A stretch of 60,074 bases of DNA from Candidatus Thorarchaeota archaeon (GTDB lineage: Archaea; Asgardarchaeota; Thorarchaeia; Thorarchaeales; Thorarchaeaceae): assembly GCA_048882325.1 (NCBI GenBank), contig JBHLRS010000019.1, positions 1-60,074 of the forward strand. The letters are read 5' to 3'. Shown here piece after piece: positions 1 through 21,513 of this stretch. A program made the position numbers and the translations under genes. Numbering within the stretch: position 1 is the stretch's first letter; every line of letters starts with the position of its first letter. A model generated the notes under the pieces. That model did not search any database, was not told the origin of the DNA, and saw only the letters and a program-made list of their open reading frames with translations.

Positions 1-3000
1 GTAACAGCTACCTTGACTATCACTATGGCTGATACAAGACTCTATCGTGCACCAAATTCATACGTCTTTAACATCCAGATTCTCGCACATGGCACATCAA
101 TGACGGTCACTGGTGTTACAACGACACCGTATGGCAATCAGACATATCTGACAGTCGCTCTGACGGATTTAGAAACTGGTGGGCCTGTTCCTTTTGGGTC
201 AGTTGCAAGCATTGAACTACAACATGCTTTTGGTACAGACAGCGGATTCACTAGCTTTGACTACGTTTTGGACACTAGTGCATGGCCTGTGGGAACTCAC
301 ACAGTCACAGTAGTTCTTACAATACTTGGTGGAGAACCTTACAACAATCCATCAAACTATCAATTTCAAATAACGATTCGGAGCATGTCTACAGTTATGT
401 ATCATGATCCATCCCCATTAAACTTCCCATTAGGAGCAGACTTCTCTGTGGACCTACGTCTCAATGTCAGCGAACCTGGACCTAACTATGGGAATCCAAT
501 AACCGGCAGAATAGCTGGTGAGTTCTCTGTTCCTGGATACGTTATCTCTATTGGCACGACCGAGCAAGCGGTTGGCCGTTACAAACTATCAATCAGTGCG
601 TCCTATTTCACAGGAGGAACCTATCAGATCATCGTATTCTTCACATCTGCAGACAATGTGTATGCAAACACATTCGTTGTGATTCAATTCCTCTATCGAG
701 AAGTAGACAGCACCTTAACCTCACCTAACTATCCACAAGTAACAACGCCGTATCAACTAGATGTGAAGATTGTACTCAATTACACTGACATTGACTTTGG
801 CTCAGGAATTGAAGGAGCTACCATCACCTCTCCAGATCATCCAACTTGGATTGCAAATTGGAGCGATAACGGGTTCGGCATCTATGGCGTCTGGATTGAT
901 GTTTCAACACTAAGTCAAGGTATATACTATCTTAATCTTACAGCTGATAAGTCAGGTATAATCGCAAAGACTCTGGAGTTCCGGATAGTTATCAGGTCTG
1001 CGTATACTTCAGTAATACCAACTGTCGGTTCCTTAAACATTCCAATTGGTAACTCATATGTCTTCTATGCTGAGTTCACGGACACAGACAGACTCATTCC
1101 GATTGATAATAGTTCAGCACCATATACCCTTGTTAGTTCAACATGGGGGAACTTCTCTGTTGTCTATGAGTCACTATCAGATATGTATAGAATCACATTC
1201 TACACATCAGATTCTGACACAATATCCCAAAATATCGTTTACACCTTTACTTTCTCAAAAGGTGCCAACTATCAGGTTGCAGAGTTCACCATCACAGTTT
1301 CAATTCGGACTCACAACACCGATTTCCGAATAGTTAGCTCTATCGAGCCAACTAGTACAATTGGTATCTTCAACATCTCCGTCTACTATGGAGACCTCGA
1401 TAATGCTATAGGAGTCAAGTCCGCTTCAGTTGACTTCTGGGTCGAGAATGCTTCGGGTGTTGTGAGCTCAAGTTATGCTTATGACTTGATTCTAGGTGAT
1501 GGATTCTATATCATCCAGGTACCTGCAGCTCAGTTTGGACTAGGGCTACAAACTCTCACAGTCCATGCAGACTGGACTGGAGTTGTAGCGATATATCAAG
1601 ACAAGTCATTTGTCACAACTGCGAATGTAGTCGGTCGAGAATCTGCCCTCACACTTCTTGTTGGTTCCGCGCCGACTCCATACAATGAAGACATGGCATA
1701 CACGTTCTTGTACAGTGACTTGTTCAGCAGTGTTGGCATTGACAACCTGACAGGGAATGTCTTCATCTATGTTAGTTTCACAGGTGAATCAGTCAGTCCG
1801 GATGATGTCGTGATTGTTGACCTATCATTAACTGAGGCTGGTAACTACTCTATTCAATTCAATACTGGAATCTTTAGTAGAACTGGACTCATATACATGA
1901 ATGTCTTCGTCAACTGGTCAAAGGGAGTGTCTCCTTATTATGCAAACAGGACTGATGTGGTTTCCCTTACTGTTTTACGAAGGGACACATTACTCTCTAT
2001 TTCACCACCATCTGCAACCAGTTACAATGAGAATGCTACCTTCACACTCACCTTTGAGGACATTGGTACTAGTACTCTCATTACAGGTCTCACAAAAGAT
2101 CAGATTGCTCTGAACATCTCCTTCTCATTAACTGAAACAGCAGGCGTTTACACAATTTCGTTTAACACAAATCAGTATCCTAGTTTAGGAACCAAAGCTA
2201 TCCGCATTGATGTGACATGGACGGGCGCTCCATTCTATGCCAGTCGGATTGGTAGAATAACCTACATCAATATCATCTATCGCGAAACCTACTTTGAATA
2301 TCTTACTCCGCCACCCACACCCTATGGTGACCAGGTTATATTCAATGTGACATGGACTGATATAACAAGCGGAGCTTCTGACCCAATCACATCTGCGACT
2401 CTAGAATTAAGGGAAGGATCCACTCCGATTAATCTGGCTGAGTATTCCTATTTCGAAATCGCTCCAGGAATCTATCAAGTGACCTTGAACACAACCTATG
2501 TGATGGGTCCCGGTACTGATACTCTGCGCATAATTATTTCAGCTGGAGTATTTTACATAGCTGACAGGACTGTGGACCGACTGTTCACAGTTGATTATCG
2601 TTTGACAGTGGTTGCAGCCAATCCAGTAGTTGATGTTCCTTACAACTCTTCAATTCTAATCACCCTCAATTATCTTGACCAGTTTACAGGTCAATCTATT
2701 ACAAACGATTCTGCTCATGTTACAATCTTGGTGACAGCACCCTCCGGAGCGGTCTTCACTTCATCTTGGATTGTCCAAAGTCAGGAGTATGAACTCGTAA
2801 TTCATTGGAATCCAAGCTGGAGCCCAATTCTTTGGGCTCCGGGAACTGTGCATGACTTTACAGTTGAGATGAGCTACGACTCTATAGCTCCTTTTTATGA
2901 TGCTGACACAGTATCAGGTACTTTCAAGATAAGGATTCGAGACTCGACACTTGCTCTAGACACAGAACCTGAAACAACTCCCTACCTAGATGATGCTATC

Positions 3001-6000
3001 TTCATTTTAGATTATACGGATGATGATGCAAGTGGTACTGGAATCGAAGGTGCCCTTGTAAACATATTAGACAATAATTCAATTCCTCTGAACCAAGGTG
3101 TCGATTACATAGTTTCCGATGCTGGAGGTTTTTACACCATAACGGTCCATTCAACAGCACTCGGTACTCTCGGTACTCATACATTGAGGGTTCAACTCAA
3201 TTGGTCAGGCGCTCCATATCATGAGAATGTGACTCGGAATGTCAATGTCCTAGTTCGCCAGAGGGAAACTAATCTTGACATTACTGTGCCTCCATCGCAA
3301 ACATTGTACTTCGATGATGTTTCCTTCACTTTCCAATACCTCGACGTTGATGCAGACATTCAGATAACAACCATCACTTCGACAAACATACGTCTCAGGT
3401 GGCCAAATAGCACAGTGATCAATTCTATCCTCTACACTGTGAACCAAGTCGGAGGATTATATGAAATCATAATCTCATCAACAGTGTTATCCACTAGCAC
3501 TGTTTCTGGATTGTCTCTTCGCGTAGAAATCGATTGGGATGGCGGAACAGCACCATATTACAAGGATGACAGCACGATTGTAAAAATCACAATTACAAGA
3601 AGAACTATGCTTGTTGAAACCAGTCAGATTGAGAGAACTCCCAAGGGTGACCTTCTCAACATCTCAGTACTAATCACAGATCTTGACAGTGAATTACCTG
3701 TAGACAACGCTATAATCCTCTTCAGCTGTCGATTCAACCCAAGCATGAGTTACTCAAGTGCAACTGGGTTCGGATATTACAACTTCACAATTGACACATC
3801 AACTCTGTTAGGTACGGGGACGTTCCTCTTTGACATTGAGATACAATGGGATCCTACTCGTGCACCGTTCTATGCTAACCGCTCCGTCATAACACTAACT
3901 GGCTTGGTTGATTTAGTTAGAACAACCTTCACTGTAGATATAATCACTCCCTCTTCAGTACAATACACTGGAACTGTGTCCTTACTAGTGACATGGCAAG
4001 ACCTAGATCATGGAGTGCCAATGACAGGTTATGCAGGAATCCTCAACTATAGCATCAATTATCTCGCTGGAGGAAGACCTCTACTGCTAAATGTATTCGA
4101 AACTGGGACTCTTGGCGAATATAATATCACATTCAGTACCTCTGATCGCACAATCGGAGCTCATACACTTGTTATCATTGCAGAAGTATCTCCATATTCA
4201 CCTGTAACTGTAACTCCACAGTTTAGTGTTGTTCCAATAAACACTGAATTGACGCCGATGGTAACATCAATCACAGATTATTGGAAGAATATAACTCCAA
4301 TTTCTGTCGATTATCTAGACCTGTTTAATGGCGTGCCTATATCAAGTGCTGCTAGCGTGACTTGGTCCTATGCGCCGTTAAGTCTCGGTGGTATTTTGAC
4401 CGAGGTTGGATCGACAGGAACCTATGAGGGTTTGGTTGATACGAATGCTTTCGAAGCTGGTACCTTCGTACTGACAATCACAGCCACAAAGAGTAGTTAC
4501 AGCACTGCGATAACTACGATAACACTTGTTGTACTACGGATTCCTAGTGAGATGTCTATCATATCACCCACTAAACTTGTCTATAATGTGAGCAGAGGAG
4601 ATCCGGTCTTTGTGCAAATTGAACTTATGGATCCCACAAGTGGTTTCCCGATTGGGAACACAGCTGTCCTAAATGAATCTGGCAATTATCAAGTCTATGC
4701 GGAGCTGAAAAGTGAAAGATATTACATGCTCTATGATGTTGGTAATGGATTGTGGAATGTAACAATACCTGGATCTGCTACTGTTCTTGAAGCTTTGTTG
4801 TCCTATGATGTGCAGATTTTCGCAGGTTTCAAGAATTACGATCCAGCTGTTGCTCAATTCACACTCTATATACAACAAGCATCAACGCAACTCAAAGTAA
4901 TTGGATTGCCTGATCCAACCAAACATGAAGTCTACTATCTTCAAGAGGTTACAATAGAACTCAATTTCACTGCCCCAAATCTTGACATGTTGATTGACAA
5001 CGCCAGTGTTAGATGGTTGGACTCAACACGGAACATTTCACTTGATTTCACATCCATGGGGAATGGAATTTGGAGTTTGACCTTCAATACTTCGATTCTT
5101 GGATTTGGCACTGTGGGAGTTTCATTCTATGGTTCCCCAGCCAATTCAACACTTGCTGATACTCTGACAAGTATGACATTGACTGTCAAGAAGATACCAA
5201 CTTCAATTGATGGCCCCACAGAACTCCTCAATCGTGTATGGGGTTGGCAAGGGAATATCGCACTGAATTTCAGTGACGACTATAATGACAGGAACGTTGC
5301 AGGAGCCACTGTGACTTTCAACTATGGAAATCTCGATTTTAACGCAACAGATCTCGGGAATGGTACATATGTTCTGTACATTGACACAACAATTTTGGAT
5401 TCAGGTTCACGAGAGAAGATATCAACATCATTCATTCTCGCAAACTACGAAGAGCGATCGTTTAGTTTCTACATAAATGTAGAGGAGCGTCCTACAGAGC
5501 TAATAGTTTCTTATCCTGACCAGAATCATGTTTCATTCATTGAAGATGTGATTACTCTAGAGCTTACGATGGGTGATGCTATAGACATCTCCCTATTCTA
5601 TAACGATACTAATACTATTGGTGGACTTCTTGGAGGTATCGAAGGTGCTAACTTCACCGCATACACCGAGCTCAGAGCTCCCTCTTACTTCTCTGGCTCT
5701 AGGACTGTTGTCTTCATCGATGGATTTGGTTACTATAATTTCACCTTTGACACAAATGATGTAACACTATATGATCGATATCCCGGTCCTACTATTCTCG
5801 AAGGCGACTACTTTACCTATACCATCGAGATTTTCTCTGAACACAGAGCCCTGCAGAAAATCGAGATTAGAATCAGGATCATTGAAACTCCAACAGAGAT
5901 CATATTCGATGGCGACGTTGTAGATCCGGACACTAACATTGTCTATACAATCACAAATGGTGAGGAAGTTGTCTTTGACTTCTATATCCGTGATACATGG

Positions 6001-7026
6001 CATGATGTAGGTGTACCTAGTGCAAGTTACTCCTTCACTTCTGGCGCGACCGCAATCATTAGTAGTAATACCACTCTCGGTGCTGGCAATTATCGACTTA
6101 TTATCAGAGCTGTAGATTACGGTGGAGACTCCTTGCTGACCGTCACATTAAGCACAGAATTTCATGATGATGTGGAGATGAGCTTTCTCATTCATACAGA
6201 ACCTAACGATTTCGATATTCTCTTCCGTGACTTCACGAGAATTGGACTCCCAATAAGCTTGTTTGTCATCTTATTGTTGGGTGCCTATGTCCGGGTTTGG
6301 AGTGTGCCAAAGAGAATCAGACAGATCAATGGGCAGCTCAAGGCACTTCGCAAGGGTAAAGTGCCCAAACCAATTGGTGATGTCAAGAGTCGACAACAGC
6401 TTGCAGCAGAACTCTTCAACGATACATTCTCCGAGTTCAAGATCACACGAACCGCAGCCCAGATGCCCGAGGATGCGATACCGATTGAGGTTCCTGAGAT
6501 GGGTGAACTGCTCATGCAACTTGCGATTCTCACCAATCTTAGTCAAGCAGAACTTGACGAGTTCCAGGCTGACATCAACAAGATGAAGATGAGTGAGCAA
6601 GCCGCCTTTGTGAAAGAGGTCATCATGCAAGAGGCTATCCGTGCCGCACGTCGTGATGGCAAAACCATTGAGGAGACCTTGGCTACAGTAGAACAGGAGG
6701 CCATACGTCGCCTCGGTGGAGAAGAAGAGATTGCTCCTGTTGAAGTTGTTGAACCTGAAGAGACTGAAACAGTCTTCCTGGAGGAAGGGAAAGAAGCAGA
6801 GGTCACCGAGGAGAAGTCCCTCTTACATAAGGATGAGGTCACTGAAGAGGGTCCAGAAGTAGCCTCAGAGAAAATGAGCCTATATGAGATTGAGGAGCTC
6901 CGGAGAGACCTCGAACGTAGAGGCGTACCTCCACATGAGATTGATACCATTGTCGAGCAGGCCAAAGAGCTGCCTCGGGAGCTTGTGGATGAACTCGTCA
7001 AGAGTCTAGAGGGTAAGAAGGACTAG
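1..7026 (+). CDS. Giant type-I membrane surface protein, 5'-truncated by the window; ~100-aa Ig-like beta repeats, C-terminal TM helix and cytoplasmic tail
   Basis: Frame is open from base 1 (gta aca gct acc ttg...). Recurrent TPY...D.D.G...G.Y.I..nT motifs and many N-x-S/T sequons. TM segment IGLPISLFVILLLGAYVRVW at ~6241-6300, then a charged tail. Colinear with the 7177 protein from about its residue 930 onward. Confidence 0.9.
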   Translation, partial: VTATLTITMADTRLYRAPNSYVFNIQILAHGTSMTVTGVTTTPYGNQTYLTVALTDLETGGPVPFGSVASIELQHAFGTDSGFTSFDYVLDTSAWPVGTHTVTVVLTILGGEPYNNPSNYQFQITIRSMSTVMYHDPSPLNFPLGADFSVDLRLNVSEPGPNYGNPITGRIAGEFSVPGYVISIGTTEQAVGRYKLSISASYFTGGTYQIIVFFTSADNVYANTFVVIQFLYREVDSTLTSPNYPQVTTPYQLDVKIVLNYTDIDFGSGIEGATITSPDHPTWIANWSDNGFGIYGVWIDVSTLSQGIYYLNLTADKSGIIAKTLEFRIVIRSAYTSVIPTVGSLNIPIGNSYVFYAEFTDTDRLIPIDNSSAPYTLVSSTWGNFSVVYESLSDMYRITFYTSDSDTISQNIVYTFTFSKGANYQVAEFTITVSIRTHNTDFRIVSSIEPTSTIGIFNISVYYGDLDNAIGVKSASVDFWVENASGVVSSSYAYDLILGDGFYIIQVPAAQFGLGLQTLTVHADWTGVVAIYQDKSFVTTANVVGRESALTLLVGSAPTPYNEDMAYTFLYSDLFSSVGIDNLTGNVFIYVSFTGESVSPDDVVIVDLSLTEAGNYSIQFNTGIFSRTGLIYMNVFVNWSKGVSPYYANRTDVVSLTVLRRDTLLSISPPSATSYNENATFTLTFEDIGTSTLITGLTKDQIALNISFSLTETAGVYTISFNTNQYPSLGTKAIRIDVTWTGAPFYASRIGRITYINIIYRETYFEYLTPPPTPYGDQVIFNVTWTDITSGASDPITSATLELREGSTPINLAEYSYFEIAPGIYQVTLNTTYVMGPGTDTLRIIISAGVFYIADRTVDRLFTVDYRLTVVAANPVVDVPYNSSILITLNYLDQFTGQSITNDSAHVTILVTAPSGAVFTSSWIVQSQEYELVIHWNPSWSPILWAPGTVHDFTVEMSYDSIAPFYDADTVSGTFKIRIRDSTLALDTEPETTPYLDDAIFILDYTDDDASGTGIEGALVNILDNNSIPLNQGVDYIVSDAGGFYTITVHSTALGTLGTHTLRVQLNWSGAPYHENVTRNVNVLVRQRETNLDITVPPSQTLYFDDVSFTFQYLDVDADIQITTITSTNIRLRWPNSTVINSILYTVNQVGGLYEIIISSTVLSTSTVSGLSLRVEIDWDGGTAPYYKDDSTIVKITITRRTMLVETSQIERTPKGDLLNISVLITDLDSELPVDNAIILFSCRFNPSMSYSSATGFGYYNFTIDTSTLLGTGTFLFDIEIQWDPTRAPFYANRSVITLTGLVDLVRTTFTVDIITPSSVQYTGTVSLLVTWQDLDHGVPMTGYAGILNYSINYLAGGRPLLLNVFETGTLGEYNITFSTSDRTIGAHTLVIIAEVSPYSPVTVTPQFSVVPINTELTPMVTSITDYWKNITPISVDYLDLFNGVPISSAASVTWSYAPLSLGGILTEVGSTGTYEGLVDTNAFEAGTFVLTITATKSSYSTAITTITLVVLRIPSEMSIISPTKLVYNVSRGDPVFVQIELMDPTSGFPIGNTAVLNESGNYQVYAELKSERYYMLYDVGNGLWNVTIPGSATVLEALLSYDVQIFAGFKNYDPAVAQFTLYIQQASTQLKVIGLPDPTKHEVYYLQEVTIELNFTAPNLDMLIDNASVRWLDSTRNISLDFTSMGNGIWSLTFNTSILGFGTVGVSFYGSPANSTLADTLTSMTLTVKKIPTSIDGPTELLNRVWGWQGNIALNFSDDYNDRNVAGATVTFNYGNLDFNATDLGNGTYVLYIDTTILDSGSREKISTSFILANYEERSFSFYINVEERPTELIVSYPDQNHVSFIEDVITLELTMGDAIDISLFYNDTNTIGGLLGGIEGANFTAYTELRAPSYFSGSRTVVFIDGFGYYNFTFDTNDVTLYDRYPGPTILEGDYFTYTIEIFSEHRALQKIEIRIRIIETPTEIIFDGDVVDPDTNIVYTITNGEEVVFDFYIRDTWHDVGVPSASYSFTSGATAIISSNTTLGAGNYRLIIRAVDYGGDSLLTVTLSTEFHDDVEMSFLIHTEPNDFDILFRDFTRIGLPISLFVILLLGAYVRVWSVPKRIRQINGQLKALRKGKVPKPIGDVKSRQQLAAELFNDTFSEFKITRTAAQMPEDAIPIEVPEMGELLMQLAILTNLSQAELDEFQADINKMKMSEQAAFVKEVIMQEAIRAARRDGKTIEETLATVEQEAIRRLGGEEEIAPVEVVEPEETETVFLEEGKEAEVTEEKSLLHKDEVTEEGPEVASEKMSLYEIEELRRDLERRGVPPHEIDTIVEQAKELPRELVDELVKSLEGKKD

Positions 7027-7176: not shown

Positions 7177-10100
7177 ATGGTGCCGAGTATGAGGAAAAGC
7201 AGTTTTCTTTCCCTAGTCTTAATTACGTTGTTCATGTTTAGTCTTGCAGACCTGTCAGGAAATGGTACTCTGGCAACTGATACGGGACCGATACTAAACT
7301 ATCAAAATCAGGTCTCAGAGGCTGGCGGCACCTGGGTAGGCACTGGGTCTTCTCTGCCAGTTTCCTTCACTGGTACATTCACAAATAGTGATACTTGGAT
7401 AGATACTAGTACAACCCTCTCCTCTGATTTCACAGCTGGAACCTCTTTTGAAGTATCCAACTCAAGTACAGCGAAATGGACTGCTTACATTCTGGTTTCT
7501 CCACCTGCTGAGGTGGTAACTCTTAGTTTTACCGTGGACTATAATGAGACTGAGTGGCGGCCAACAACGCTCACCAATCCAGTTGGAGTTGTCATGACCT
7601 ATGCAACTGACTGGTGGTACGATGCTGGTCTTGTCTATGTAAGTGAATCTGCAGTAACAACGCATGGTGTATGGAAACTCGAATTCACAGCAATGAACCA
7701 TCTGCTTAATCTTGAGCTTGGTCTAAGCACTGGACCTTTGGGAACTACATCTAATTTCGTACTCAATAATGAGATACTGTTTCGAGGTACAAGCACTTGG
7801 ATTACTGGTTCCTCGACAGAATTTGTTCTGACAGACCCAACGGGTACTGTATGGCACTCAGCAACTAACACAACTGTAGGTTCCAATTCACATCTCCTTC
7901 AATCATTTCAATATAGGAAGGACATTACAATCGATAGGTCAAGACATCTTGGTACAAGCGTGAACAATTTCCCAGTCATGATTGATATCACAGATGCAGC
8001 CCTTCAGACACACGTACAAAGCGATGGTGATGACATCATCTTTGCTTCTGGCGGGAAAATCCTTTCACACCAGATTGAGTTCTTCGATCAGGTAACAGGT
8101 CATTTGATAGCTTGGGTCAAGACGAATCTGACTGGCTCAGTAAACACAGTCATCAGTATGTATTATGGAAATCCGCTTCTTGGTAATATGGAAAAACCAG
8201 AAGATGTCTGGACTGAGAGCTTCGCCTCTGTCTGGCATCTTGATGAGGCTGCTACAGCTGGACAAACAACATCGACTCATTATGACTCCACATCTGGAGG
8301 GTATGATGGAACGCAAAGTGGGAACTATGATGACACAGGAGCTGTCGGGAGTGGGCAGCACTTTGATGGCGTCAATGATCAGGTAGTCATTGCTGCGTCA
8401 AAGTCACTTGAGCCAACAGGTGATGTTGAGATTTCGGGTTGGTTCAAGCTTGATGTACCACACAACGCATTCTCAAGTTCAACGAAGATTCTGGTCACTA
8501 AGATGCTTGATGGTGACAATGATATGCACATTGCGCTTGTTGGGACTGACTATACAACAGCAGCGGCTTCTGATGGCAGTCTCGTTTTCAAGACTGAAAA
8601 TAGCAATGCTCAGATGTACAAATGGACCGCTCAAACAAGCTGGCAGGCTGGAGTTTGGTACTACTTTGCGTGTTTCATGGATGCCAGTACTCCAGCAAAC
8701 AACAGGATATACGTTCGAGCAATTCAAGATACTGCCGGAACAAGCGGAGGAACCACATTTGCTAATCTTTCTTTCATTGCAGATTGGGGCATTGGTGGTG
8801 GACTTATTGACCAAGTAGTAGGTAATCTTGCTTGGTTCGATGGCGTAATTGATGAGGTTCGTGTTTCCAATGTGGCAAATGGTAGGTCTGGAGCATGGAG
8901 AGCGGCTGAATGGTCCAATCTTAATGATCCCTCCACATTCTATTCAGTTGGTTCAGAGATTGAGAGAACCTCTCCTGATCCTCAGACAAAGAAGACTGTT
9001 GATGCCACAGCCATTGCTGGTTCATGGATTGTCACAGCTTACTACAATGATTCGGGTAGTTCAGTGAACTTTCGCGTAGGAATGTACGAAAGAGCCTTTA
9101 CCATTAAGCAGGCATCTAAATTGAGCCTCAATGCTCCTACCGATGCTGTCGGAGATAATATTACAGCGGCTACTATTGGTGATTCTGTCTATGTTCAAGT
9201 TGAACTCACTGATGACTTCACTTCTTCAGGGGTTATCGGTGCAACCGTAACTACCAATTGGACTATTTTTGGTACAGGAACTAACCTGCAATTCTATGAT
9301 GAGGGTGGAGGTCTTTATGGGCTAGTTCTAAATACAACCCAACTTGAGGATAACATACGATGGAGGCTTAATATAGAGTCAAATCATCCATACTATACTT
9401 ATGCAGAAATTCAACTCTTTATTGATCTCAGCCATGATACTGTTTTGGGTTTCAATAACGTAGACTCAACACCTATAGGATTTGACTTCACAGCGACACT
9501 AGTCTATGTAGATACTTATGGCGGTAGTCCAATTGCAGGTGCAACAATCACATTTGCTAATGGTACACCTGTGAATGTTGTTTCTGAACTGAATGGTCAA
9601 TACAATATCTCTCTATCAACCTCGGGACTTAGTGCTGGGGTATATACATTCAGATTCAATGCTACAAAGTCAGGTGCGCTTCTTGAGATGGCCAGTGTGG
9701 AGATTACATTCATTCTTAGACCTCACTACACTGCAGTATCAGTTTCTGGTGACCTCTTGACACCATCAGGCTTCAATACTCCCGTGACTGTAGTCCTAGT
9801 AGATTTGGATACAGGAAGCCTTGTTGACATCAGTAATGTGGCCTCGATAACATTCACGACAACAAACTATGGGTCTCCATTATTTGGAACCTTCACTCCT
9901 ACTTTGCTTACAAACTCATGGAATGTCGGTGTAGAAGATATCACAATCACTGTGAGTATGTCAAGCTCGGATTACTATGCTCCAGATGCATATGATTTCC
10001 AAGTGACCATTAGGAAACACTACACCTCTGCAACAGTCATTGGAAATTTGGTGACTCCGTTTGGTAACAACACACCTCTGACTGTGGTTTTAGTTGACCT

Positions 10101-13100
10101 TGATACTGGTGGAAGTGTGGCTGTAGCGGCTGTTGATTCCATCGAGCTAGACTCGATCATCTATCCTCTTTACTTCGATGGTTCACCCTCTAGTTTCAAT
10201 GTACTCCTACTGACAGGTGATGACTCTTGGGCTGTTGGATCCCGGACTGCGACTCTAAGAATCGTGATGTTGGTGTCATCGATATACCAAGATCCAACAG
10301 ATTACGCTTTTACCGTGACCATCAGAAGCATGGCTACGTATCTCTATAATGAACCAAGCGACCTCAGATTTCCAAATGGTGACGACTTCTACATCGCTTT
10401 AAGGTTCAATGTAAGCGAGATTGGTCCTAACTATGGTGACTATATAGCAGGTCTCACAGCTGGCGAATTCGCGATTAGCAATGGGACCTTCACTTATCCG
10501 AAGACAATCAACAATTTTGGATTTGGAATATACAATCTTACTATTGCTGCCTCTTATTTCCCTGAAGGCACCTATACAATCTATGTGACAGTTAATCCAT
10601 CTGATCCTCGCTATGCCTCAACCCAACTAGTTCTGATCTTCGACTATCGACCGACGAGAACTGATCTGACATCTAACATCTACACCATCTCGACACCTTA
10701 CGAACATGATGTTGTCGTCACATTATTCTTTGAAGACCTTGACAGGAGCCTTGGCATTACTACTGGAATAATAACATCACTGGATGCCACAATTGGATAT
10801 GTTCACACAGGCGGTGGTTACTACGATGTGACCATTGATGTTACAGGTCTAACTATCGTAGCCAGCCCTCACATAATAACTCTGACTGCTGATGCAACGG
10901 GCTATGACTCCCGCGATATCGACATTACTATTATCATTACTGAAATTCACACCGATGCTGAACCCTCGTTAATATCACTTGACATGCCTGTGGGTGACAT
11001 CAAGATATTCACAATTGACTTCAACGACCTAGATAACGGTGTCCCCATAGGTACTGCCACAGTTACCCATAACTGGACCGTTCAGCCCAATGTTGTTGTG
11101 TCTTGGACTGGAACCAACTGGCAGGTCACATTCACTACAACAGGTTCTGACCCTCTAGGTACCTATACAGTCTGGTTCAACTTTGACGAAGGTTCTGGTA
11201 ACTATCAGGATGGTTACTGTGAGATTGAGGTCATTGTAAGAAGTCATACAACTCTGTTCAACTTGGTCAGTGCAGTCGAACCAACACCGTTCAATGGTCT
11301 CGTTAATATCTCTTTGAGATACTGGGATTGGGATAACAACGTTGGTATCGATACTGACACAAATATCTCCTCCACTGTGTGGAATGGAACTGCTTGGATT
11401 CCTCACACACTTGTTAATGATCCCGCTGTAGGTTATTACACAATACAGATAGATGCGACTCAATTCAGCCAGGGTGTCCAGAACTTTGACATCTACTTCA
11501 CATGGACTGGACTTGTCCAACAATATGAGGACAAAACGACGACTGCATCGGTCAACATAATCGGAATTGACTCCCAGCTTACTTTACTACAGTCCTCGGA
11601 ACCAACTCCGTACCTTGATTCAATGTTGTATATCTTCAATTACGCTGAAACCAGCGGGCTTGGTATTACGAATTCCAGCTATGGTGGAGGAAATGTACAC
11701 ATCTCTGTTAGTTTTCAAGGTGAAACCGTCGATCTTGGACAAGTAACGATTACAGAGATTGATCCAGTCCTTCAACCTGGCGACTATTCAATCTCCTTCA
11801 GTACAACAATCTTCGGTAGGACTGGACTCATCTATATGAATGTCTACATCAATTGGTCTGCTGGTGTGGCACCATACTACACCAATCGATTTGATGTGAT
11901 ATCCGTTCGAGTGCTTCCACGCGACACTGTCCTCTCTGTTGTATCTCCAACTCCAGAATCTTATGGTGAAAACGCTACATTCTCTTTCACTTTTGAGGAT
12001 GTCACAGGTGGTGCAAGCGTTCCAATAGATGATAACCCTGCAATGAATGTGAGTCTAAGTCTGGCAGGTTACACCTTGACATGGAATGGTGGCACTCACA
12101 CATTCACTGTGTCATTCAATACAAGTCAATTTGGTGCTCCTCTAGGACAGAAGTCATTCACTCTTAGTGTAACTTGGTCCGGTACTCCTTACTATACCAA
12201 CAGAACTGGTCACACTGTCTTCATTACTGTAACTGCACGTCAGACAGTATTCGACTATCAGTCACCTGCACCAACCTCATATCTCAACAATGTGACAATC
12301 AATCTTGACTGGACTGATGTTTCCGGTGCCGCCACACGGGGGATTGAAGGAGCTACTATCACACTTCTAGAAGGTGCAATTCCAATCTCAAGTTTTTACT
12401 ACACGGTCTATGACATCGGAGGAGGCCTTTACGAAGTGGTGCTCAACACGACTGCTTTTGCTACTCCTGCAGACTATGATCTTACTATTGAGCTAACAAC
12501 TGGCTATTTCTACATCAATAATGTCAGTTCTCACCGTACTCTCAGAGTACTGTATCGACAATCACTTCTTTCCGCAGAACCTATTGGACCCACGCCATAC
12601 AATTCTTCCCTTGTCTATATCCTCGACTTCTTGGATAGAGAAACATCGGGCACGATTGGAAATGAAACCAGTCTTGTTTCTTTAAGCATCCTCAATGGAA
12701 GTGATTGGTTCTTTACAGTAGAGTGGATGTCTGGATTCGAGTACTACGAACTCACCATTTTGACCTATAACCATCCCGAGCTTGTAATTGGTGTGGAGTA
12801 TGTCCTACAGATAGAGGCTTCATTCTCCAATCAGGTGCCTTTCTATGGATCTGATGACACCTTTGTGTTCTTTGAACTCAGAACTCGCGCCTCTACAGTT
12901 TCTCTCATCGACTCGCCTGATCCAACTGCATATCTCGAAAATTCAGTGTTTAGGGTTCAATACCTTGATACAGACAGTGGTATAGGAATTACAGCAGATA
13001 GTATCTCCATTCACAGAGGTGTATTCACACTCACACCTGGAACAGATTATATCCTATCTTTTGAAGGCAACGGACTCTATTTTGTTACTTTGAATACGAC

Positions 13101-16100
13101 CGCTCTAGGCGGTATAGGCTCTACAACTATACAGGTTCGAGCTTTCTGGACAGGTGGCTCTCCATATCATGATGATGCGACATTGGATGTTAATGTATAC
13201 GTCACAAAGAGAGAGGCCAATGTCGAGATCACCACACCACCTACACAAGCAAGATATCTTGACAATGTCACCTTCCAATTTGTATATCGTGATTTGGCAA
13301 CAGCAACTGTGATTGATAGCATAACAATCAATGAAATCCAGATTTGGGCTGGTGGTATTCTACTCACTCCCCTCCAATATTCAATATCTGAAGTATCAGG
13401 GACTTTCACTGTCAGCATCAATTCAACTGTTCTGAGTGCAGGATTGGTTAGTAATTACAATGTGACTGTGTTCGCTGATTGGAATGACGCGACTGCTCCC
13501 TTCTATTTCGATGATGCCACAATAGTACGAGTGTCAACTAGAGGGAGAAGTATGTCATATTCTGTCCTACCAGCTGAAGAAACAGCGTATGGTGAGTTGC
13601 TCAATCTATCATTCTCATTACTCGATGCTGATTCAGGCAATCCAGTTAGTGACCTTCATACAGTCATCAGTTTTGACCTTCAGAGTGGCGGTCTTACTCC
13701 GGGAGTTGACTTTTGGATACTAGGGTCACCTGGTTTGTTCACCGTTCAGATTGATACCACGGCTTTAGGCAATCCTGGGACCTACCACTTTGACCTTGAT
13801 ATTAGCTGGGATGGGTCGGCTCCATACTATCTTGGTTTGGCTACTATAGATATGATCGGTATTGTAAACAAGATTGATACAATTCTAATTCCAACACAAG
13901 ATATTGTGGAGGTTCAATGGTCCGCTTCTACTTCAATCACAGTAACATACCAGAGTTTGCTTGATAGCAGTCTGATCGATGGGGCTGATGTAATTTGGGA
14001 GTCGCCATTTGAGTATGCAGGTCCTGCTGGATTTATTGGCTCAGGTCAATACCAGGCTTCAATTGACACAGCTGCATATGCTGGTCTTCATGTAGGTACC
14101 TACGTGATTACTATCACAGTAGAGAATCTTACTGCATACAAATCAGCTATTGCATACGTCACTCTTGTTATTACTGCACTTGACAGTGAGATGACTTTGA
14201 TAGATCCAGCTACACCCGTCATCAGCATTAATCGAGGTGCTGCATTACCAATCACTGTATACTTGACGGATGGTAGCTTCATTCCGATTTCTAACTCACA
14301 AGTGACTCAAGTTGTTGCTACACTGGATGATATCTATCAATTCACTCTTGCATACACTGGAACTCCTGGATATTATTCAGGTCTTCTCCCTGCGGATGAT
14401 GAAACTGCAACAAAGAGAGCTCCTGGAATTCCGTATGATGTCATTCTTTCATCGACGTTTCAAGACTATTACCCAGCAGTCTACTCATTCACGTTCCTGG
14501 TCTTGCAAACGAAAACCGCTGTCAATCTCACAGGTGACACAACTGAAGACATGACCTTTGTATATTCAGAGGCTGGATTACTAGAAGTAAATGTGGTGCT
14601 TCCAGATGCTGGTGTGCCAACCTATTTCTGGAATGGTACAGTCCAGTGGTCAATCTCTGACTTGGGTCTGAGTGGAAACTTCAGTACCGATTATGGTAAT
14701 GGGACATATTCAACACTCCTCGATACTACACTCATAGGTTATGGCATTGTACCACTAACTTTGACCTTCATTCCATGGCAAAATATGTCACTCTATGCAT
14801 CATCCATCCGTCTCATTACAGTCGCAATTACACGTATACAAACTTCAGCAACCCCACCGATTGGACGCGACTTCATATGGGGCTGGAGTGGTTATCTTGA
14901 GTTCATCTTTTGGTCAGAGTCGTTCGACACAGGAATCCCGGGTGCAAGTGTCACAGTAACCTTGCCAGGTGCTGAATTTACGTCCGCGATAGACCTCAAT
15001 AATGGGTCATACCTTATCTATCTCAACACAACCCTGCTTCGAGCCAGTTCAAGCTATTTGCCACTGACTGTGACTTTCTCTAAGGCAAATTACCTTGCAG
15101 CGAGTTCAATAATTCAAATTAGGGTCCTTGAGGTCCCCACTGAAATCTCTGTGCATTCTATTGATTACACGCCCGCATATGCAGGTGACCTGACTGACTT
15201 TCTCAATCTTCAGATTCCTCTTGGGGACTCGATGGCTATCATCTTCTGGTATAATGACACCGATATCTCTGACCTCTATGTTGGAGGTCTTTCTGGTGCC
15301 TCTGCTACACAGGATAGTTTACTGCGTGGTCCCACGATTGCTGAGCCAATTAGCGTCACTGTAATTTCACTTGGCAATGGTCTGTATCAGGTCATCTTCG
15401 ATACGATGGACCCAGACGTTAGTGCCATCGTTAGTCCTCTTAAATATCAATTATCAGTTGCACTTGAGTTTGAAAATCGAACAACATCTCAAATTCTGTT
15501 CAACATTGAAGTGATCAATACTCCCACAGAGTTATTGATTAATGGAGTAGTTCCAGATGTTTTGACAAATGGTGATTCAGTGACTATTGAGCTGCTATAT
15601 CACGACGTCTGGCATAATCTTGGGATTCCTGGAGCAACATTTTCAGCAAACGCAAGCGCAGGTTCTCCATTCACAGGCCACCTAGAGGCTGGTACAGCTC
15701 CCGGACAATACTTCCTCACGATCAGTACAGGAGGAATCATGTTTAGTCCGGGCTCTGGTACTCTAATAATAAATCTAAATGCTGAATCATACGCTCAAGG
15801 CACTACCTCAATCTTCATCGAAGTTGAACAGAGCAGCTTTGATGTTCTTGTCACTAATGGTGTGTTCTATGGATTCCCATTAATCCTAATTATCTCTCTC
15901 ATAGGTGGTGCATATCTACGAGTTTGGAGCGTACCCAAACGTCTGCGTCAAATCAATAAAATGATTAAATCTATGCGAAAGAGGAAGGTTCCCAAACCAG
16001 TTAGTGATGCAAAAAGCAGACAACAGCTCATAACCGACCTCTTCAATGATACCTATGAGGATCTTGGAATAACTCGTACCGCAGAGCAATTTACCGAGGA

Positions 16101-16683
16101 ATCAATCCCTGTTCAGGTCCCCGAGGTTGGTGAACTTCTTATACAACTCTCAATTCTTACTAACCTGAACCAGCAGGAACTCGACGAGTTCAAGGCAGAC
16201 ATTGCAAAGATGAAGATGAGCGAGCAAGCCGCCTTCGTAAAAGAGGTCATCATGCAGGAGGCCATCCGTGCAGCTCGCCGTGATGGCAAGAGCGTAGATG
16301 AGATTCTTGAGGAAGTCCAAAAGGATGCTGCTCAGAAACTCGCAGGTGAAAAAGGTAGAGATGTGCCTGAAGGAGTTGAGGTTGAAGAGGAAGAAGAGGA
16401 AGTCGAGCCAGTCTTCTTAACACCTGAAGAGACGGCACCGGTATCTGAACCAGTCGTTTCGCCTGATAAGCCAACTGAGCCTGCTCCGACAGAGGACATC
16501 AGCTTCACCAGTGAAACACTTAGTCCCTTCGAGATTGATGAACTCAGGAAGGAGCTTGTGGAGAAGGGTGTTCCCGCATCTGAGATTGACATCATCCTCA
16601 AACAGGCTGAAGAGCTTCCACGAGAACTTGTTGAAGAGCTCATACGAAGCCTTGATGCGGAGCGGCTACGAGGCGACCTCTGA
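7177..16683 (+). CDS. Giant type-I membrane surface protein (3168 aa): signal peptide, DUF2341 plus LamG/ConA-like module, Ig-like repeat stalk, TM helix, cytoplasmic tail
   Basis: MRKSSFLSLVLITLFMFSLA signal. YRKDITID..NFPVMI..DGDDIIF..LSHQIE..AWVK..MYYGNP (DUF2341-like). VWHLDE...FDGVIDEVRVS (LamG-like). TM segment GVFYGFPLILIISLIGGAYLRVW. Confidence 0.92.
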   Translation: MVPSMRKSSFLSLVLITLFMFSLADLSGNGTLATDTGPILNYQNQVSEAGGTWVGTGSSLPVSFTGTFTNSDTWIDTSTTLSSDFTAGTSFEVSNSSTAKWTAYILVSPPAEVVTLSFTVDYNETEWRPTTLTNPVGVVMTYATDWWYDAGLVYVSESAVTTHGVWKLEFTAMNHLLNLELGLSTGPLGTTSNFVLNNEILFRGTSTWITGSSTEFVLTDPTGTVWHSATNTTVGSNSHLLQSFQYRKDITIDRSRHLGTSVNNFPVMIDITDAALQTHVQSDGDDIIFASGGKILSHQIEFFDQVTGHLIAWVKTNLTGSVNTVISMYYGNPLLGNMEKPEDVWTESFASVWHLDEAATAGQTTSTHYDSTSGGYDGTQSGNYDDTGAVGSGQHFDGVNDQVVIAASKSLEPTGDVEISGWFKLDVPHNAFSSSTKILVTKMLDGDNDMHIALVGTDYTTAAASDGSLVFKTENSNAQMYKWTAQTSWQAGVWYYFACFMDASTPANNRIYVRAIQDTAGTSGGTTFANLSFIADWGIGGGLIDQVVGNLAWFDGVIDEVRVSNVANGRSGAWRAAEWSNLNDPSTFYSVGSEIERTSPDPQTKKTVDATAIAGSWIVTAYYNDSGSSVNFRVGMYERAFTIKQASKLSLNAPTDAVGDNITAATIGDSVYVQVELTDDFTSSGVIGATVTTNWTIFGTGTNLQFYDEGGGLYGLVLNTTQLEDNIRWRLNIESNHPYYTYAEIQLFIDLSHDTVLGFNNVDSTPIGFDFTATLVYVDTYGGSPIAGATITFANGTPVNVVSELNGQYNISLSTSGLSAGVYTFRFNATKSGALLEMASVEITFILRPHYTAVSVSGDLLTPSGFNTPVTVVLVDLDTGSLVDISNVASITFTTTNYGSPLFGTFTPTLLTNSWNVGVEDITITVSMSSSDYYAPDAYDFQVTIRKHYTSATVIGNLVTPFGNNTPLTVVLVDLDTGGSVAVAAVDSIELDSIIYPLYFDGSPSSFNVLLLTGDDSWAVGSRTATLRIVMLVSSIYQDPTDYAFTVTIRSMATYLYNEPSDLRFPNGDDFYIALRFNVSEIGPNYGDYIAGLTAGEFAISNGTFTYPKTINNFGFGIYNLTIAASYFPEGTYTIYVTVNPSDPRYASTQLVLIFDYRPTRTDLTSNIYTISTPYEHDVVVTLFFEDLDRSLGITTGIITSLDATIGYVHTGGGYYDVTIDVTGLTIVASPHIITLTADATGYDSRDIDITIIITEIHTDAEPSLISLDMPVGDIKIFTIDFNDLDNGVPIGTATVTHNWTVQPNVVVSWTGTNWQVTFTTTGSDPLGTYTVWFNFDEGSGNYQDGYCEIEVIVRSHTTLFNLVSAVEPTPFNGLVNISLRYWDWDNNVGIDTDTNISSTVWNGTAWIPHTLVNDPAVGYYTIQIDATQFSQGVQNFDIYFTWTGLVQQYEDKTTTASVNIIGIDSQLTLLQSSEPTPYLDSMLYIFNYAETSGLGITNSSYGGGNVHISVSFQGETVDLGQVTITEIDPVLQPGDYSISFSTTIFGRTGLIYMNVYINWSAGVAPYYTNRFDVISVRVLPRDTVLSVVSPTPESYGENATFSFTFEDVTGGASVPIDDNPAMNVSLSLAGYTLTWNGGTHTFTVSFNTSQFGAPLGQKSFTLSVTWSGTPYYTNRTGHTVFITVTARQTVFDYQSPAPTSYLNNVTINLDWTDVSGAATRGIEGATITLLEGAIPISSFYYTVYDIGGGLYEVVLNTTAFATPADYDLTIELTTGYFYINNVSSHRTLRVLYRQSLLSAEPIGPTPYNSSLVYILDFLDRETSGTIGNETSLVSLSILNGSDWFFTVEWMSGFEYYELTILTYNHPELVIGVEYVLQIEASFSNQVPFYGSDDTFVFFELRTRASTVSLIDSPDPTAYLENSVFRVQYLDTDSGIGITADSISIHRGVFTLTPGTDYILSFEGNGLYFVTLNTTALGGIGSTTIQVRAFWTGGSPYHDDATLDVNVYVTKREANVEITTPPTQARYLDNVTFQFVYRDLATATVIDSITINEIQIWAGGILLTPLQYSISEVSGTFTVSINSTVLSAGLVSNYNVTVFADWNDATAPFYFDDATIVRVSTRGRSMSYSVLPAEETAYGELLNLSFSLLDADSGNPVSDLHTVISFDLQSGGLTPGVDFWILGSPGLFTVQIDTTALGNPGTYHFDLDISWDGSAPYYLGLATIDMIGIVNKIDTILIPTQDIVEVQWSASTSITVTYQSLLDSSLIDGADVIWESPFEYAGPAGFIGSGQYQASIDTAAYAGLHVGTYVITITVENLTAYKSAIAYVTLVITALDSEMTLIDPATPVISINRGAALPITVYLTDGSFIPISNSQVTQVVATLDDIYQFTLAYTGTPGYYSGLLPADDETATKRAPGIPYDVILSSTFQDYYPAVYSFTFLVLQTKTAVNLTGDTTEDMTFVYSEAGLLEVNVVLPDAGVPTYFWNGTVQWSISDLGLSGNFSTDYGNGTYSTLLDTTLIGYGIVPLTLTFIPWQNMSLYASSIRLITVAITRIQTSATPPIGRDFIWGWSGYLEFIFWSESFDTGIPGASVTVTLPGAEFTSAIDLNNGSYLIYLNTTLLRASSSYLPLTVTFSKANYLAASSIIQIRVLEVPTEISVHSIDYTPAYAGDLTDFLNLQIPLGDSMAIIFWYNDTDISDLYVGGLSGASATQDSLLRGPTIAEPISVTVISLGNGLYQVIFDTMDPDVSAIVSPLKYQLSVALEFENRTTSQILFNIEVINTPTELLINGVVPDVLTNGDSVTIELLYHDVWHNLGIPGATFSANASAGSPFTGHLEAGTAPGQYFLTISTGGIMFSPGSGTLIINLNAESYAQGTTSIFIEVEQSSFDVLVTNGVFYGFPLILIISLIGGAYLRVWSVPKRLRQINKMIKSMRKRKVPKPVSDAKSRQQLITDLFNDTYEDLGITRTAEQFTEESIPVQVPEVGELLIQLSILTNLNQQELDEFKADIAKMKMSEQAAFVKEVIMQEAIRAARRDGKSVDEILEEVQKDAAQKLAGEKGRDVPEGVEVEEEEEEVEPVFLTPEETAPVSEPVVSPDKPTEPAPTEDISFTSETLSPFEIDELRKELVEKGVPASEIDIILKQAEELPRELVEELIRSLDAERLRGDL

Positions 16684-16685
16684 GT

Positions 16686-17462
16686 CTAGTCCTCTTCTGT
16701 CCTCTCCTCTTTTCTGAGGAAGTAAGAGAGAGGTAGAGTTGTTCCAGAGGAAACAGTCTTTGTTCGATTGGTCCTCCTGACCGGATATTGAGGATGTTTA
16801 GCGAGTGTGTAGGTTCGACGTGACTTGGACTCGGACACCTTGATGTGAATCTGAGCAGAACCTGAAAGAGTCTTCCCGCCCTCAGGAAGACTCGGATTCC
16901 TCTTTGAGACCGGAGCTGACAACAGCGTGAAGATTCCTCTCCTGAGAGTGAGTGCTGAGATCTTCGATGCCATGTGTGATATCTCCTGCATCCCCTCTCC
17001 CTTGAGCCCCTCCTCTAGATACAGCTGTGGAAGTCCAGTCACCATGAGAACTCGAGCTGGAATCATGTCAAGAAATCCTTCAAGTTGGGCCATAACAAGA
17101 TCGTAGGTCTGTGATGCATTGAACGCCCGAGAGATGTAGATTCTATCCATCACAATCTCGGGTTCAAGTTCATACTCATATGCGAGTTCCGTGAACCTCT
17201 CCATCTTGATGATGTTCGCGCTGTCTATAATAATGGTTGGACTCTCTAGTCCTCCACGCTCTTTGGGAGTCTGCATCTTTACTGCAATACGATGGAAGTC
17301 ATCGTGAAGCGAACGGTCGCCGTAGAAGAGATGGATCAACCCCGACTCGATTCCACCACCCAGGAGACTGTCAAGTGCCACAATGCCTGACTCGACTTTA
17401 ACACTTAGGAATTCATCTGCTGTGCGAAATCCCTGTTTTAATGGAATCTCTGGCTGTTTCAT
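16686..17462 (-). CDS. RadA/Rad51-family paralogue with degenerate Walker A and B motifs
   Basis: SGIVALDSLLGGGIESGLIHLFYG, MDRIYISRAFN and PEGGKTLSGSAQIHI match the RadA core. P-loop reads GDRSLHDD. Start moved to ATG 17462 (MKQPEIP). Confidence 0.8.
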   Translation of the reverse strand: MKQPEIPLKQGFRTADEFLSVKVESGIVALDSLLGGGIESGLIHLFYGDRSLHDDFHRIAVKMQTPKERGGLESPTIIIDSANIIKMERFTELAYEYELEPEIVMDRIYISRAFNASQTYDLVMAQLEGFLDMIPARVLMVTGLPQLYLEEGLKGEGMQEISHMASKISALTLRRGIFTLLSAPVSKRNPSLPEGGKTLSGSAQIHIKVSESKSRRTYTLAKHPQYPVRRTNRTKTVSSGTTLPLSYFLRKEERTEED

Positions 17463-17563
17463 CTCAGATGTAAGTGTAGCATCAGTCCCATATAACCACC
17501 CCCAGAAGGCCAAAACATAGGTTTCCGATTCTGGCAATTGTTAAAAGGGACCGACGAAGATGT

Positions 17564-17803
17564 ATGGTACTTACGCCGGGAGGATGCAATATAGCCGTGA
17601 GGAAGATTCGAGTCTGCCCAAAATGTGGCTCTGACAAAATCAGAGACGCCAAGACTTCTGTGAGTGGTTGGCTTGTTCCAACCACTTATTATTGTGGGGA
17701 GGAGGACTGTGATTATACAGGCTCGCTCTATGTCGAGGTGGATGTAGAAGAAGCTGAGCAGTTAAAGCGGGCAATGAATGGAGATACTAGCGAAAGTACA
17801 TAA
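17564..17803 (+). CDS. Small zinc-ribbon protein
   Basis: CPKCGS...YYCGEEDCDY; the real start may be GTG 17597. Confidence 0.65.
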   Translation: MVLTPGGCNIAVRKIRVCPKCGSDKIRDAKTSVSGWLVPTTYYCGEEDCDYTGSLYVEVDVEEAEQLKRAMNGDTSEST

Positions 17804-17885
17804 AATTCATAAATCGGAAACAAATCCACCCAGAGCAAATGCCTTAAGTAGGCGTCAAGCAGACAAAGGGTAGGGTGACTACACC

Positions 17886-18311
17886 ATGGTAACACACGAG
17901 GGTTTCGATTTCCCTGATGATCTATACTATACTGAAGACCAGATCTGGGTCAAGAAAGAAGATGGCAAGGTCAGACTTGGCTTCACCACCTTCGGCATGG
18001 ACCTGGCTGGTAAAATCAAGTTTGTCAGACTGAGACCAGCAGGCAAGGCTATCGCCGCGGGGCGAAGCATTGGCACTCTGGAATCAGGAAAGTGGACTGG
18101 ACCTGTCAAGGCTCCTGTTGGTGGTACAATCGTTGAGGTCAACGATGCACTGAAGGACAATCCTGGGATTCTGAATGAGGATCCCTATGGGGCTGGTTGG
18201 GTCGCAGTTCTTGAGCCTGACAACTTGGATGCAGACCTAGCAAATCTTCAAGGTGCAGACGGACTAGAAGACTGGATCAAGAAGGAATTTGCAGAAAAGA
18301 AAGCTGCATAA
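17886..18311 (+). CDS. gcvH: Glycine cleavage system H (lipoyl-carrier) protein
   Basis: FPDDLYYT..WV, lipoyl-lysine motif ESGKW, APVGGTIVEVN, NEDPYGAGW. Confidence 0.93.
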   Translation: MVTHEGFDFPDDLYYTEDQIWVKKEDGKVRLGFTTFGMDLAGKIKFVRLRPAGKAIAAGRSIGTLESGKWTGPVKAPVGGTIVEVNDALKDNPGILNEDPYGAGWVAVLEPDNLDADLANLQGADGLEDWIKKEFAEKKAA

Positions 18312-18325
18312 TCAATGGAATGAGA

Positions 18326-18341
18326 GGCCGGATTTCCGGCC
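18326..18341. terminator. Hairpin between convergent gcvH and cdc6-like genes
   Basis: Perfect inverted repeat GGCCGGA-TT-TCCGGCC. Confidence 0.55.
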
Positions 18342-18356
18342 ACCATCCATCTTCTT

Positions 18357-19499: not shown

Positions 19500-19522
19500 C
19501 GTAGGGAAGTCCCTTTGGTAGG

Positions 19523-19530
19523 TATATAAA
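19523..19530 (-). promoter_or_regulatory. TATA box of the cdc6-like gene (probably a leaderless transcript)
   Basis: TTTATATA on the minus strand about 24 nt upstream of ATG 19499. Confidence 0.6.
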
Positions 19531-19741
19531 CCCCCTAAGAGACATGCCCGAAAGTATCCAGAGTCCGAAATGGCGTTAGAGTTTAATGGAATCTATTAGC
19601 GATTTTTCAAACGATAGATATAACGCTAGGACTGAAAGTATTCGATTTGGAAATGGGTCAAGAACTCACTTTCACTAGATGCTTGGACCAATTTATGAAA
19701 TCTCATCATGGTGCTCTGATCATATCTGGTTCGATTTTTCA

Positions 19742-20014
19742 TCAGTTATTTAACCGCTTTATCATACTCACTGATTGATTCAGCTCTATATGCAGATTCT
19801 CAATCAAAAACGGATTCTCTTCGGAGCCGTCACCATCAAATGTGCTCCATAATAGATCATCATTGCCTATTATTGTGATTGGATCTGAATCAATTCTCTC
19901 GATGGATAGGCTGAATGATGAATCAGGAATCCCATATCTGATTTCAGTGAAGTTTCCCTGAAACAATAATGTAAAACTAAATAACAATAGAAAGATAATG
20001 ATCCCTTTTTTCAC
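19742..20014 (-). pseudogene. Truncated N-terminal fragment of a secreted NosD/parallel beta-helix-type surface protein
   Basis: Signal peptide plus DPITIIGNDDL..FDGDGSEENPFLIENLHI, a motif that normally precedes beta-helix repeats; the ORF stops about 12 codons later, in AT-rich DNA. Confidence 0.6.
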
Positions 20015-20418
20015 CGAAAATCCCCTAGAAATCTGATATTCAAGGTTCTATTAAACTCTTTTACAACATGATTGCCTTGAATTGGCAGTTGATCAAGTTT
20101 GATAGACATACTAATTTACGTGTTGAATAAAACAGCCATAATTGCTGAAACTCAAGAAGCTTGAATGAAGAATCATCCATTAATCGGACTCGTCTAGTTT
20201 TCAGTTTACATAAAATCCTGAAACAAAGCCTTCAAGCTGTATCCTGCAAGTATGAAATTTCAATACACAAAGATTGCCATTTTTATATCGAATGGACGAG
20301 CACTTGATGTTAAAACCCGAAACAACTCGCGAATGGAACTGCTTACAGTTATACGTCATCAATGTTGAACCATAATCATTATACATTCGAGATTTCACTA
20401 CTCCTATTCGTGGTTTCA

Positions 20419-20922: not shown

Positions 20923-20956
20923 GCTGAACGTCTAGTACTCCAAGGACCAAAGGTCT

Positions 20957-21472: not shown

Positions 21473-21513
21473 ATTGAATGAGACGTGCTTGTTTCACTTA
21501 TGCTTTGCAGTCC

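Follow-up and report, generated by a model that had tools for sequence, protein, structure and literature searches.

A conserved, uncatalogued cytoplasmic tail of predicted giant surface proteins in Thorarchaeota, with a juxtamembrane motif found across much of the Asgard archaea

Among the closest described counterparts of the giant proteins analysed here is PySLP, the 292-kDa S-layer protein of Pyrobaculum arsenaticum, which has homologs in Thermoproteota and, as the most abundant envelope protein, builds a hexagonal lattice (10.64898/2026.08.21.746120). The paper on PySLP does not mention Asgard archaea (10.64898/2026.08.21.746120). Cells of the latter show complex surface densities, and the proteins behind them are unidentified (PMC9834061). 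NPRL2-like longin proteins have been reported in Asgard archaea, in passages that describe no link between them and the tails of surface proteins (10.1101/2020.10.19.343400). The literature we searched, with incomplete coverage, contained neither an intracellular partner of any Asgard surface protein nor an account of the tail described below. Judged from its sequence, this tail is a real and uncatalogued module. What is new here is its three-part anatomy, its reach across Asgard archaea and its tie to a family of putative adaptors.

The window, i.e. the whole stretch of 60,074 nucleotides that was analysed, contains two colinear giant genes, at 1-7026 and 7177-16683, separated by 150 bases. 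Their features are as follows.

1..7026, plus strand: 3' part of the gene for giant protein A, 2,341 residues in the window
6241..6294, plus strand: membrane helix of giant protein A, from hydropathy
6295..6444, plus strand: juxtamembrane (JM) motif of giant protein A, tail residues 1-50
6487..6657, plus strand: core three-helix unit of giant protein A, tail residues 65-121
6580..6663, plus strand: 28-residue block identical in both proteins, copy of giant protein A
6715..6864, plus strand: acidic linker of giant protein A, 19 D/E in 50 residues, predicted disordered
6865..7023, plus strand: terminal three-helix unit of giant protein A, probably related to the core unit
7177..16683, plus strand: giant protein B, 3,168 residues
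15859..15918, plus strand: membrane helix of giant protein B
15922..16071, plus strand: JM motif of giant protein B
16114..16290, plus strand: core unit of giant protein B, containing the identical block at 16207-16290
16510..16665, plus strand: terminal three-helix unit of giant protein B

Giant protein A consists of a beta-rich repeat stalk, one membrane helix and a 243-residue tail. Giant protein B begins with a hydrophobic N-terminal signal and a DUF2341 match, followed by a repeat stalk, one membrane helix and a tail of 253 residues. N-glycosylation sequons abound in the outer parts (44 in A and 49 in B) and are rare in the tails (2 and 1). The hydrophobic N-terminus and single late helix of B and the sequon-rich outer parts, with topology read from hydropathy, identify type I single-pass proteins. 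Gene A is truncated by the start of the contig, its orthologs having about 4,100 residues, and its missing 5' part probably lies, by sequence match, at the end of contig C36. Positions 29482-30921 of C36 are 59% identical to the start of the ortholog of gene A in genome G013. A start of gene A at the end of C36 suggests that C36 joins C19. Downstream of the giant genes, positions 16686-24009 carry a convergent Rad51/RadA-like gene and genes for a glycine cleavage H protein, an AAA protein and FAD-binding and CCG iron-sulfur proteins; the order is the same in a relative, with no evident tie to the giant genes. Assembled contigs of a public run that is possibly the source of this DNA span both tails with zero differences, which argues against an assembly artefact. 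The strain differences listed for contigs from two runs, at low depth, all fall in the ectodomains (window positions 2093-2511 and 15607-15771) and none in the tails.

The initial annotation had noticed that the two tails are far more similar than the ectodomains, and this is borne out: identity between A and B is 60% over the whole tail and 37% over the aligned ectodomains. By part, it amounts to 63% in the JM region, 84% in the core (6481-6666), 42% in the linker and 59% in the terminal module, whereas ectodomain windows of 62 residues reach 66% at best, with a median of 34%. A tail more conserved than the exposed ectodomain is common in itself, and the similarity is here inflated because A and B are sister paralogs among the six of this genome (94/94 in the tree). 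The 28-residue block, reported as identical in protein and different in DNA, has 9 nucleotide differences in 9 codons, all of them synonymous (pS 0.55, pN 0). The dN/dS check that had been proposed gives a dN of 0.094 and a dS of about 1.9 in the core, and synonymous sites are saturated in the JM and terminal parts. These values indicate purifying selection on all parts of the tail. In trees, tails cluster by paralog across genomes and not by genome, which makes purifying selection the main cause of the likeness. The earlier claim of selection without recent gene conversion thus stands on both counts, since the sequences exclude recent conversion for the block. Older events are less firmly excluded. 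In a comparison of 7 pairs, 46% of the synonymous codons of the block differ within genomes and 55% between genomes, so that an old conversion or a common codon bias may have contributed to the likeness of the block.

We modelled the tail of giant protein A with AlphaFold2 (mean pLDDT 82). The tail had been described as bipartite; in the model and in the profiles it has three parts, namely a 50-residue JM motif, a three-helix core, and a disordered linker with a second, related three-helix unit. The JM motif is predicted to form a helix (residues 6-19), a basic loop and another helix (33-44), and its conserved residues are P5, R9, G21, P24 and R33. The core has predicted helices at 69-80, 84-95 and 99-121, with an additional helix at 125-140 after it, and the identical block corresponds to the end of core helix 2 plus the long helix 3. 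Core residues L76, M97, S100, F105, E108, V109, Q112 and E113 are invariant in Thorarchaeia. Residues 144-188 of the linker have pLDDT under 50, and the terminal unit has helices at 196-208, 213-225 and 228-241. The core and terminal units are probably repeats of a single unit, judging by profile comparison: the Hermodarchaeia core against distant terminal units gives 96.8%, the Thorarchaeia terminal unit against the same 91.7% and the Thorarchaeia core against them 80.7%. Since the direct comparison of core and terminal unit in Thorarchaeia is weak and out of register (41%), this kinship rests on the bridging profiles.

No Pfam or NCBIfam model reaches its curated cut-off on the tail, and the scores cover about 20-45 residues. 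RecX_HTH1 gives sub-threshold Pfam matches in 26 of 71 terminal units, with 18.3 bits for a cut-off of 26 and over a span of 21 residues; Pex14_N does so in 2-4 members (best E 0.001-0.015). Identity with a RecX three-helix unit, Pex14_N or a UBA-like domain is unlikely, no Pfam cut-off being reached over the domain. The match to a well-characterised domain of mundane function that the initial annotation had allowed for was therefore not found. Structure comparison with the tail model found no clear match with Foldseek (best E 0.96), TM under 0.3 in an Atlas fold search, and in VIA-align middling scores with unrelated bundles (best Z 5.7, rmsd 2.8, 59 aligned). These searches used the tail model as a whole, units together, and the fold could still be a known one. 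Feature searches of the Atlas gave no entries. PDB sequence searches returned short chance-level matches alone (polycystin-2 and the protein A of that database). A helix-hairpin-helix reading of the unit was dropped, no such Pfam family being among the matches listed, and a resemblance of the unit to a helix pair of the putative adaptor was rejected (probability 1.9%).

The tail belongs to a family. This genome encodes six giants that carry it, the longest with 6,208 residues; they are arranged as three tandem pairs (contigs C19, C6 and C16) and have tails of 186-409 residues and 1-4 copies of the terminal unit. The paralog with four such units (L022:524-1750, on C6) has a tail of 409 residues, and this arrangement is conserved in relatives. 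The core profile matches 82 of the 85 genomes of the family, and the named relatives of the tail are Thorarchaeota. Profiles of the modules, a search proposed at the outset, show conservation far beyond this genome: weak hits of a profile built from Thorarchaeia alone proved real on inspection and reached distant members. In Hermodarchaeia, giants combine the JM motif and the core with a terminal unit in one or two copies (profile match 95.8%), other distant tails have the JM motif and one unit, and many Lokiarchaeia-type tails have the JM motif alone. Beyond Thorarchaeia, an addition of two or more three-helix units to the JM motif is seen in Hermodarchaeia, Jordarchaeia and some others. Outside Asgard archaea, coverage is that of two protein-library searches. 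One, of 1.84 billion representatives, gave 134 hits, of which the named ones checked are Asgard, and the lineage-named hits of the JM profile are likewise all Asgard. The one hit among the 134 that looked non-Asgard (P0221, E 1.7e-4) was rejected as a low-complexity protein.

On profile evidence it is the JM motif, rather than the identical block, that is the most widespread part of the tail. Its profile matches 277 of 400 Asgard genomes, which belong to most Asgard lineages. Among 33 inspected hits (E up to 0.01), 31 lie directly behind a hydrophobic helix; the others are at a contig edge and behind a broken upstream frame. The best score in a control with reversed ORFs of this genome was E 0.12, while A and B, which both have P5, R9, the G21 region and R33 after the membrane helix, score E about 1e-17 to 1e-18 with a profile that includes A. 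P5, R9 and usually R33 are kept in all six paralogs and also in core-less, JM-only tails, which implies a constraint on the JM motif independent of the core. Genome G170, which we take to match the cultured Lokiarchaeum ossiferum, encodes such a protein, of 1,190 residues. Other arrangements exist. In G160 (L159, L169, L167), JM tails are continued, in the same frame, by a second hydrophobic helix and a further ectodomain, and one tail consists of repeats about 60 residues long. Other Thorarchaeia genera (L241, L278-L283) have a fourth kind of giant gene, which lies directly behind an adaptor gene in several of them; its JM motif is divergent where checked, no helical unit was detected in it, and it has no match in this genome at E 1e-8. 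Three large single-pass proteins of this genome (C8:3526-11221, C24:4647-9446 and C68:2526-7076) have a different conserved tail, with no score for the JM profile.

The neighbourhood of JM genes points to a candidate partner. Beside those of G170, G167 and G026 lies a gene for a cytoplasmic protein of about 360-420 residues. The model of the member from G026, in family f3 (pLDDT 90), has a longin-type domain and winged helices, the architecture of NPRL2/3, and Foldseek ranks GATOR1 and FLCN-complex chains first for it (E about 2e-4), with a partial match of the GATOR1 fold (TM by query 0.21-0.28). In GATOR1, NPRL2/3 provides GAP activity on a Rag GTPase within a complex with DEPDC5. The adaptor gene adjoins JM genes in nine families, is one gene away in a tenth (f26), and was found in 311 of 400 Asgard genomes. 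Its gaps are close to those of the JM motif. The JM profile found 0/31 genomes in f5, 0/12 in f14, 0/22 in f18, 1/12 in f20 and 0/5 in f32, and the adaptor profile 1/31, 0/12, 1/22, 1/12 and 0/5 respectively, counts that mean not found with these profiles, divergence being possible. The tallies run in parallel from family to family: in f20 one and the same genome has both, and in f15 the two profiles pick out an identical set of three, with the proviso that kin are not independent. Family f5 includes Heimdallarchaeum aukensis (G051), and the label Heimdallarchaeota is carried by G100 and G120, which list order places in f18 and f20. By these sequence profiles, both JM motif and adaptor are nearly undetected in Heimdallarchaeia, which may reflect one joint loss or divergence. 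In the sole f20 genome with both (L172, G119 C43), they lie side by side on one contig and score like f9 members, which suggests transfer or a binning error.

This genome encodes the adaptor twice, and both copies immediately precede a small GTPase gene. The one on C36 (13377-14543) has a 174-residue JM protein about 5 kb away, and the probable start of gene A lies at a distance of about 15 kb. The small protein (L201:7403-7927) comprises a membrane helix, the JM motif and a short helical tail, with no ectodomain, and in most of the Thorarchaeia checked its gene is conserved at a distance of 5-7 kb from those of the adaptor and GTPase; the protein might act as a decoy or as a tether dedicated to the membrane. 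The second adaptor gene, at C13:37174-38310, lies in a stretch (C13:34972-38310) where it precedes an ORF of about 600 residues that combines a small-GTPase domain with a long acidic C-terminal part. A loose order linking the adaptor/mini-JM locus to the start of gene A over 11-18 kb is found in G001, G374, G343, G388, G362 and G339, and roughly in G360, where the giant frame is broken; it was not seen in G346 or G370, and the linkage is within one family and includes unrelated metabolic genes. The adaptor is adjacent to none of the six core-bearing paralogs of this genome. In Hermodarchaeia relatives it was beside JM/core genes in 0 of 57 loci (flanks of up to 8 kb), none was adjacent in the inspected Jordarchaeia and f21 loci, and six long adaptor frames inspected for natural fusions with the JM motif had none.

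We favour, with a probability of about one half, a docking role for this tail, as the cytoplasmic end of a family of Asgard surface glycoproteins that cross the membrane once. The JM motif would dock the putative adaptor in trans and so bring a small-GTPase platform to the base of the stalks, and the helical units would gather receptors into clusters or engage a second, lineage-specific partner. In such a mechanism the basic JM motif would bind the cytoplasmic longin/two-winged-helix protein, of NPRL2/3-like fold, and the giants would tether a GTPase-regulating platform to the membrane beneath the stalks. Less firmly, the core unit, whose long helix 3 bears the identical block, might pack against the JM part and present a face that all six paralogs share and through which they could cluster or meet a second partner, and the flexibly linked terminal units might add avidity. 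The adaptor-less loci encode proteins with a core right behind the JM motif, so that the core may have replaced the adaptor and occupy the JM motif in cis. The neighbourhood evidence bears on the JM motif and says nothing on the identical block itself. The initial proposal of an unrecognised intracellular docking domain thus holds insofar as the tail is uncatalogued, predicted folded and conserved beyond this genome, docking itself being our inference. Of the partners then proposed, signalling proteins gain indirect support from the adaptor neighbourhood and the shared distribution, whereas actin and ESCRT genes were not seen beside the loci.

A different possibility, which we find unlikely if still worth pursuing, is that the JM motif and core close up into a single domain that forms oligomers with further copies of its own tail or with that of the neighbouring paralog and organises, from the cell's interior, a surface coat or stalk bundles, without need of an adaptor. 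Residues 1-140 are confidently predicted as a whole, extended segments included, the tandem pairs are kept across Thorarchaeia, core-bearing genes lack an adjacent adaptor, and core helix 3 is near-invariant among paralogs within a lineage and different between Thorarchaeia and Hermodarchaeia, all in favour of self-assembly. Giant S-layer proteins with Ig stalks also exist in Thermoproteota, yet they end in a short basic tail (10.64898/2026.08.21.746120). Moreover, the same JM residues are conserved in short core-less tails beside the adaptor, and covariation between JM motif and core is too weak to read at an effective depth of 95. We regard it as improbable that the three-helix units connect directly with Asgard actin or ESCRT-III/Vps4, as a link to the cytoskeleton or to the machinery that remodels membranes. 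In favour are the architecture, in which flexible linkers join the repeated units of a folded tail, and the actin-like filaments seen together with complex surface densities in Lokiarchaeum cells (PMC9834061). But among the genes beside the inspected loci we recognised none for actin, ESCRT or tubulin, and the tail of the L. ossiferum match has the JM motif without helical units.

The JM motif might also be a plain basic helix pair that hugs the membrane, fixing topology or binding lipid, its pairing with the adaptor reflecting shared regulation and no contact. Basic juxtamembrane tails are general, PySLP homologs have them, and the JM motif has 11 K/R and 4 D/E in 50 residues. This is nonetheless hard to reconcile with the constant spacing that P5, R9, G21 and R33 keep in distant lineages and with other large single-pass proteins of this genome, whose equally basic tails do not score, and we consider it improbable too. 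Least credible of all is a likeness left over from recent duplication or gene conversion, or an identity of the modules with a known mundane domain such as RecX helices, the Pex14 N-terminus or a UBA-like fold. The sister relationship of A and B, the somewhat lower synonymous difference of the block within the genome and the sub-threshold matches to RecX_HTH1 (26/71 terminal units) and Pex14_N (up to 4) fit such an origin. The dS of the core and saturation elsewhere, the clustering of tails by paralog and the short scores below every curated cut-off speak against it.

The docking reading can be extended, tentatively and with rather less confidence, to an ancient receptor-adaptor-GTPase module present in most Asgard archaea, where JM surface proteins would plug into an NPRL2-like adaptor and an Arf-like GTPase. 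Thorarchaeia would then have expanded the receptors to six giants and added three-helix repeats that cluster them or recruit a second partner. If true, this would be a eukaryote-style system of outside-to-GTPase signalling or adhesion in a prokaryote. Heimdallarchaeia are often placed closest to eukaryotes, and the apparent absence of the module there limits claims of direct ancestry. In practice, the tail is a short, expressible handle with a named candidate partner, and JM genes lie beside the adaptor in genomes matching the cultured Lokiarchaeum ossiferum and probably Promethearchaeum syntrophicum, which makes the module testable in living cells.

How does this tail compare with known systems? 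RecX three-helix units, the Pex14 N-terminal domain and the domains of the PDB's protein A likewise consist of three short helices with capping motifs, but their scores with the tail units are weak, partial and below cut-offs, half a unit is covered and the context differs. NPRL2/NPRL3 of GATOR1 and FLCN-type complexes have, as the candidate adaptor does, a longin domain followed by winged helices, and the adaptor genes lie beside small GTPases, although identity with the NPRL2, NPRL3 and FLCN chains is about 10-14% and TM by query under 0.3. PySLP and the Asgard giants are both very large, single-pass proteins with an N-terminal signal, an Ig-like stalk, a C-terminal membrane helix and basic residues after it; this is a likeness of layout by description, the Asgard giants being known here from their sequence. 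The difference lies in the tail, which is short, basic and ends in lysine in PySLP, whereas that of the giants has 186-409 residues and folded units. As for eukaryotic single-pass adhesion receptors with conserved tails, those of the cadherin-catenin and integrin-talin systems, we found no sequence relationship with the giants. Yet they too combine a variable outer stalk, one membrane helix, a conserved inner tail and paralog pairs, and the proposed adaptor-binding tail is in this sense an analogy of layout.
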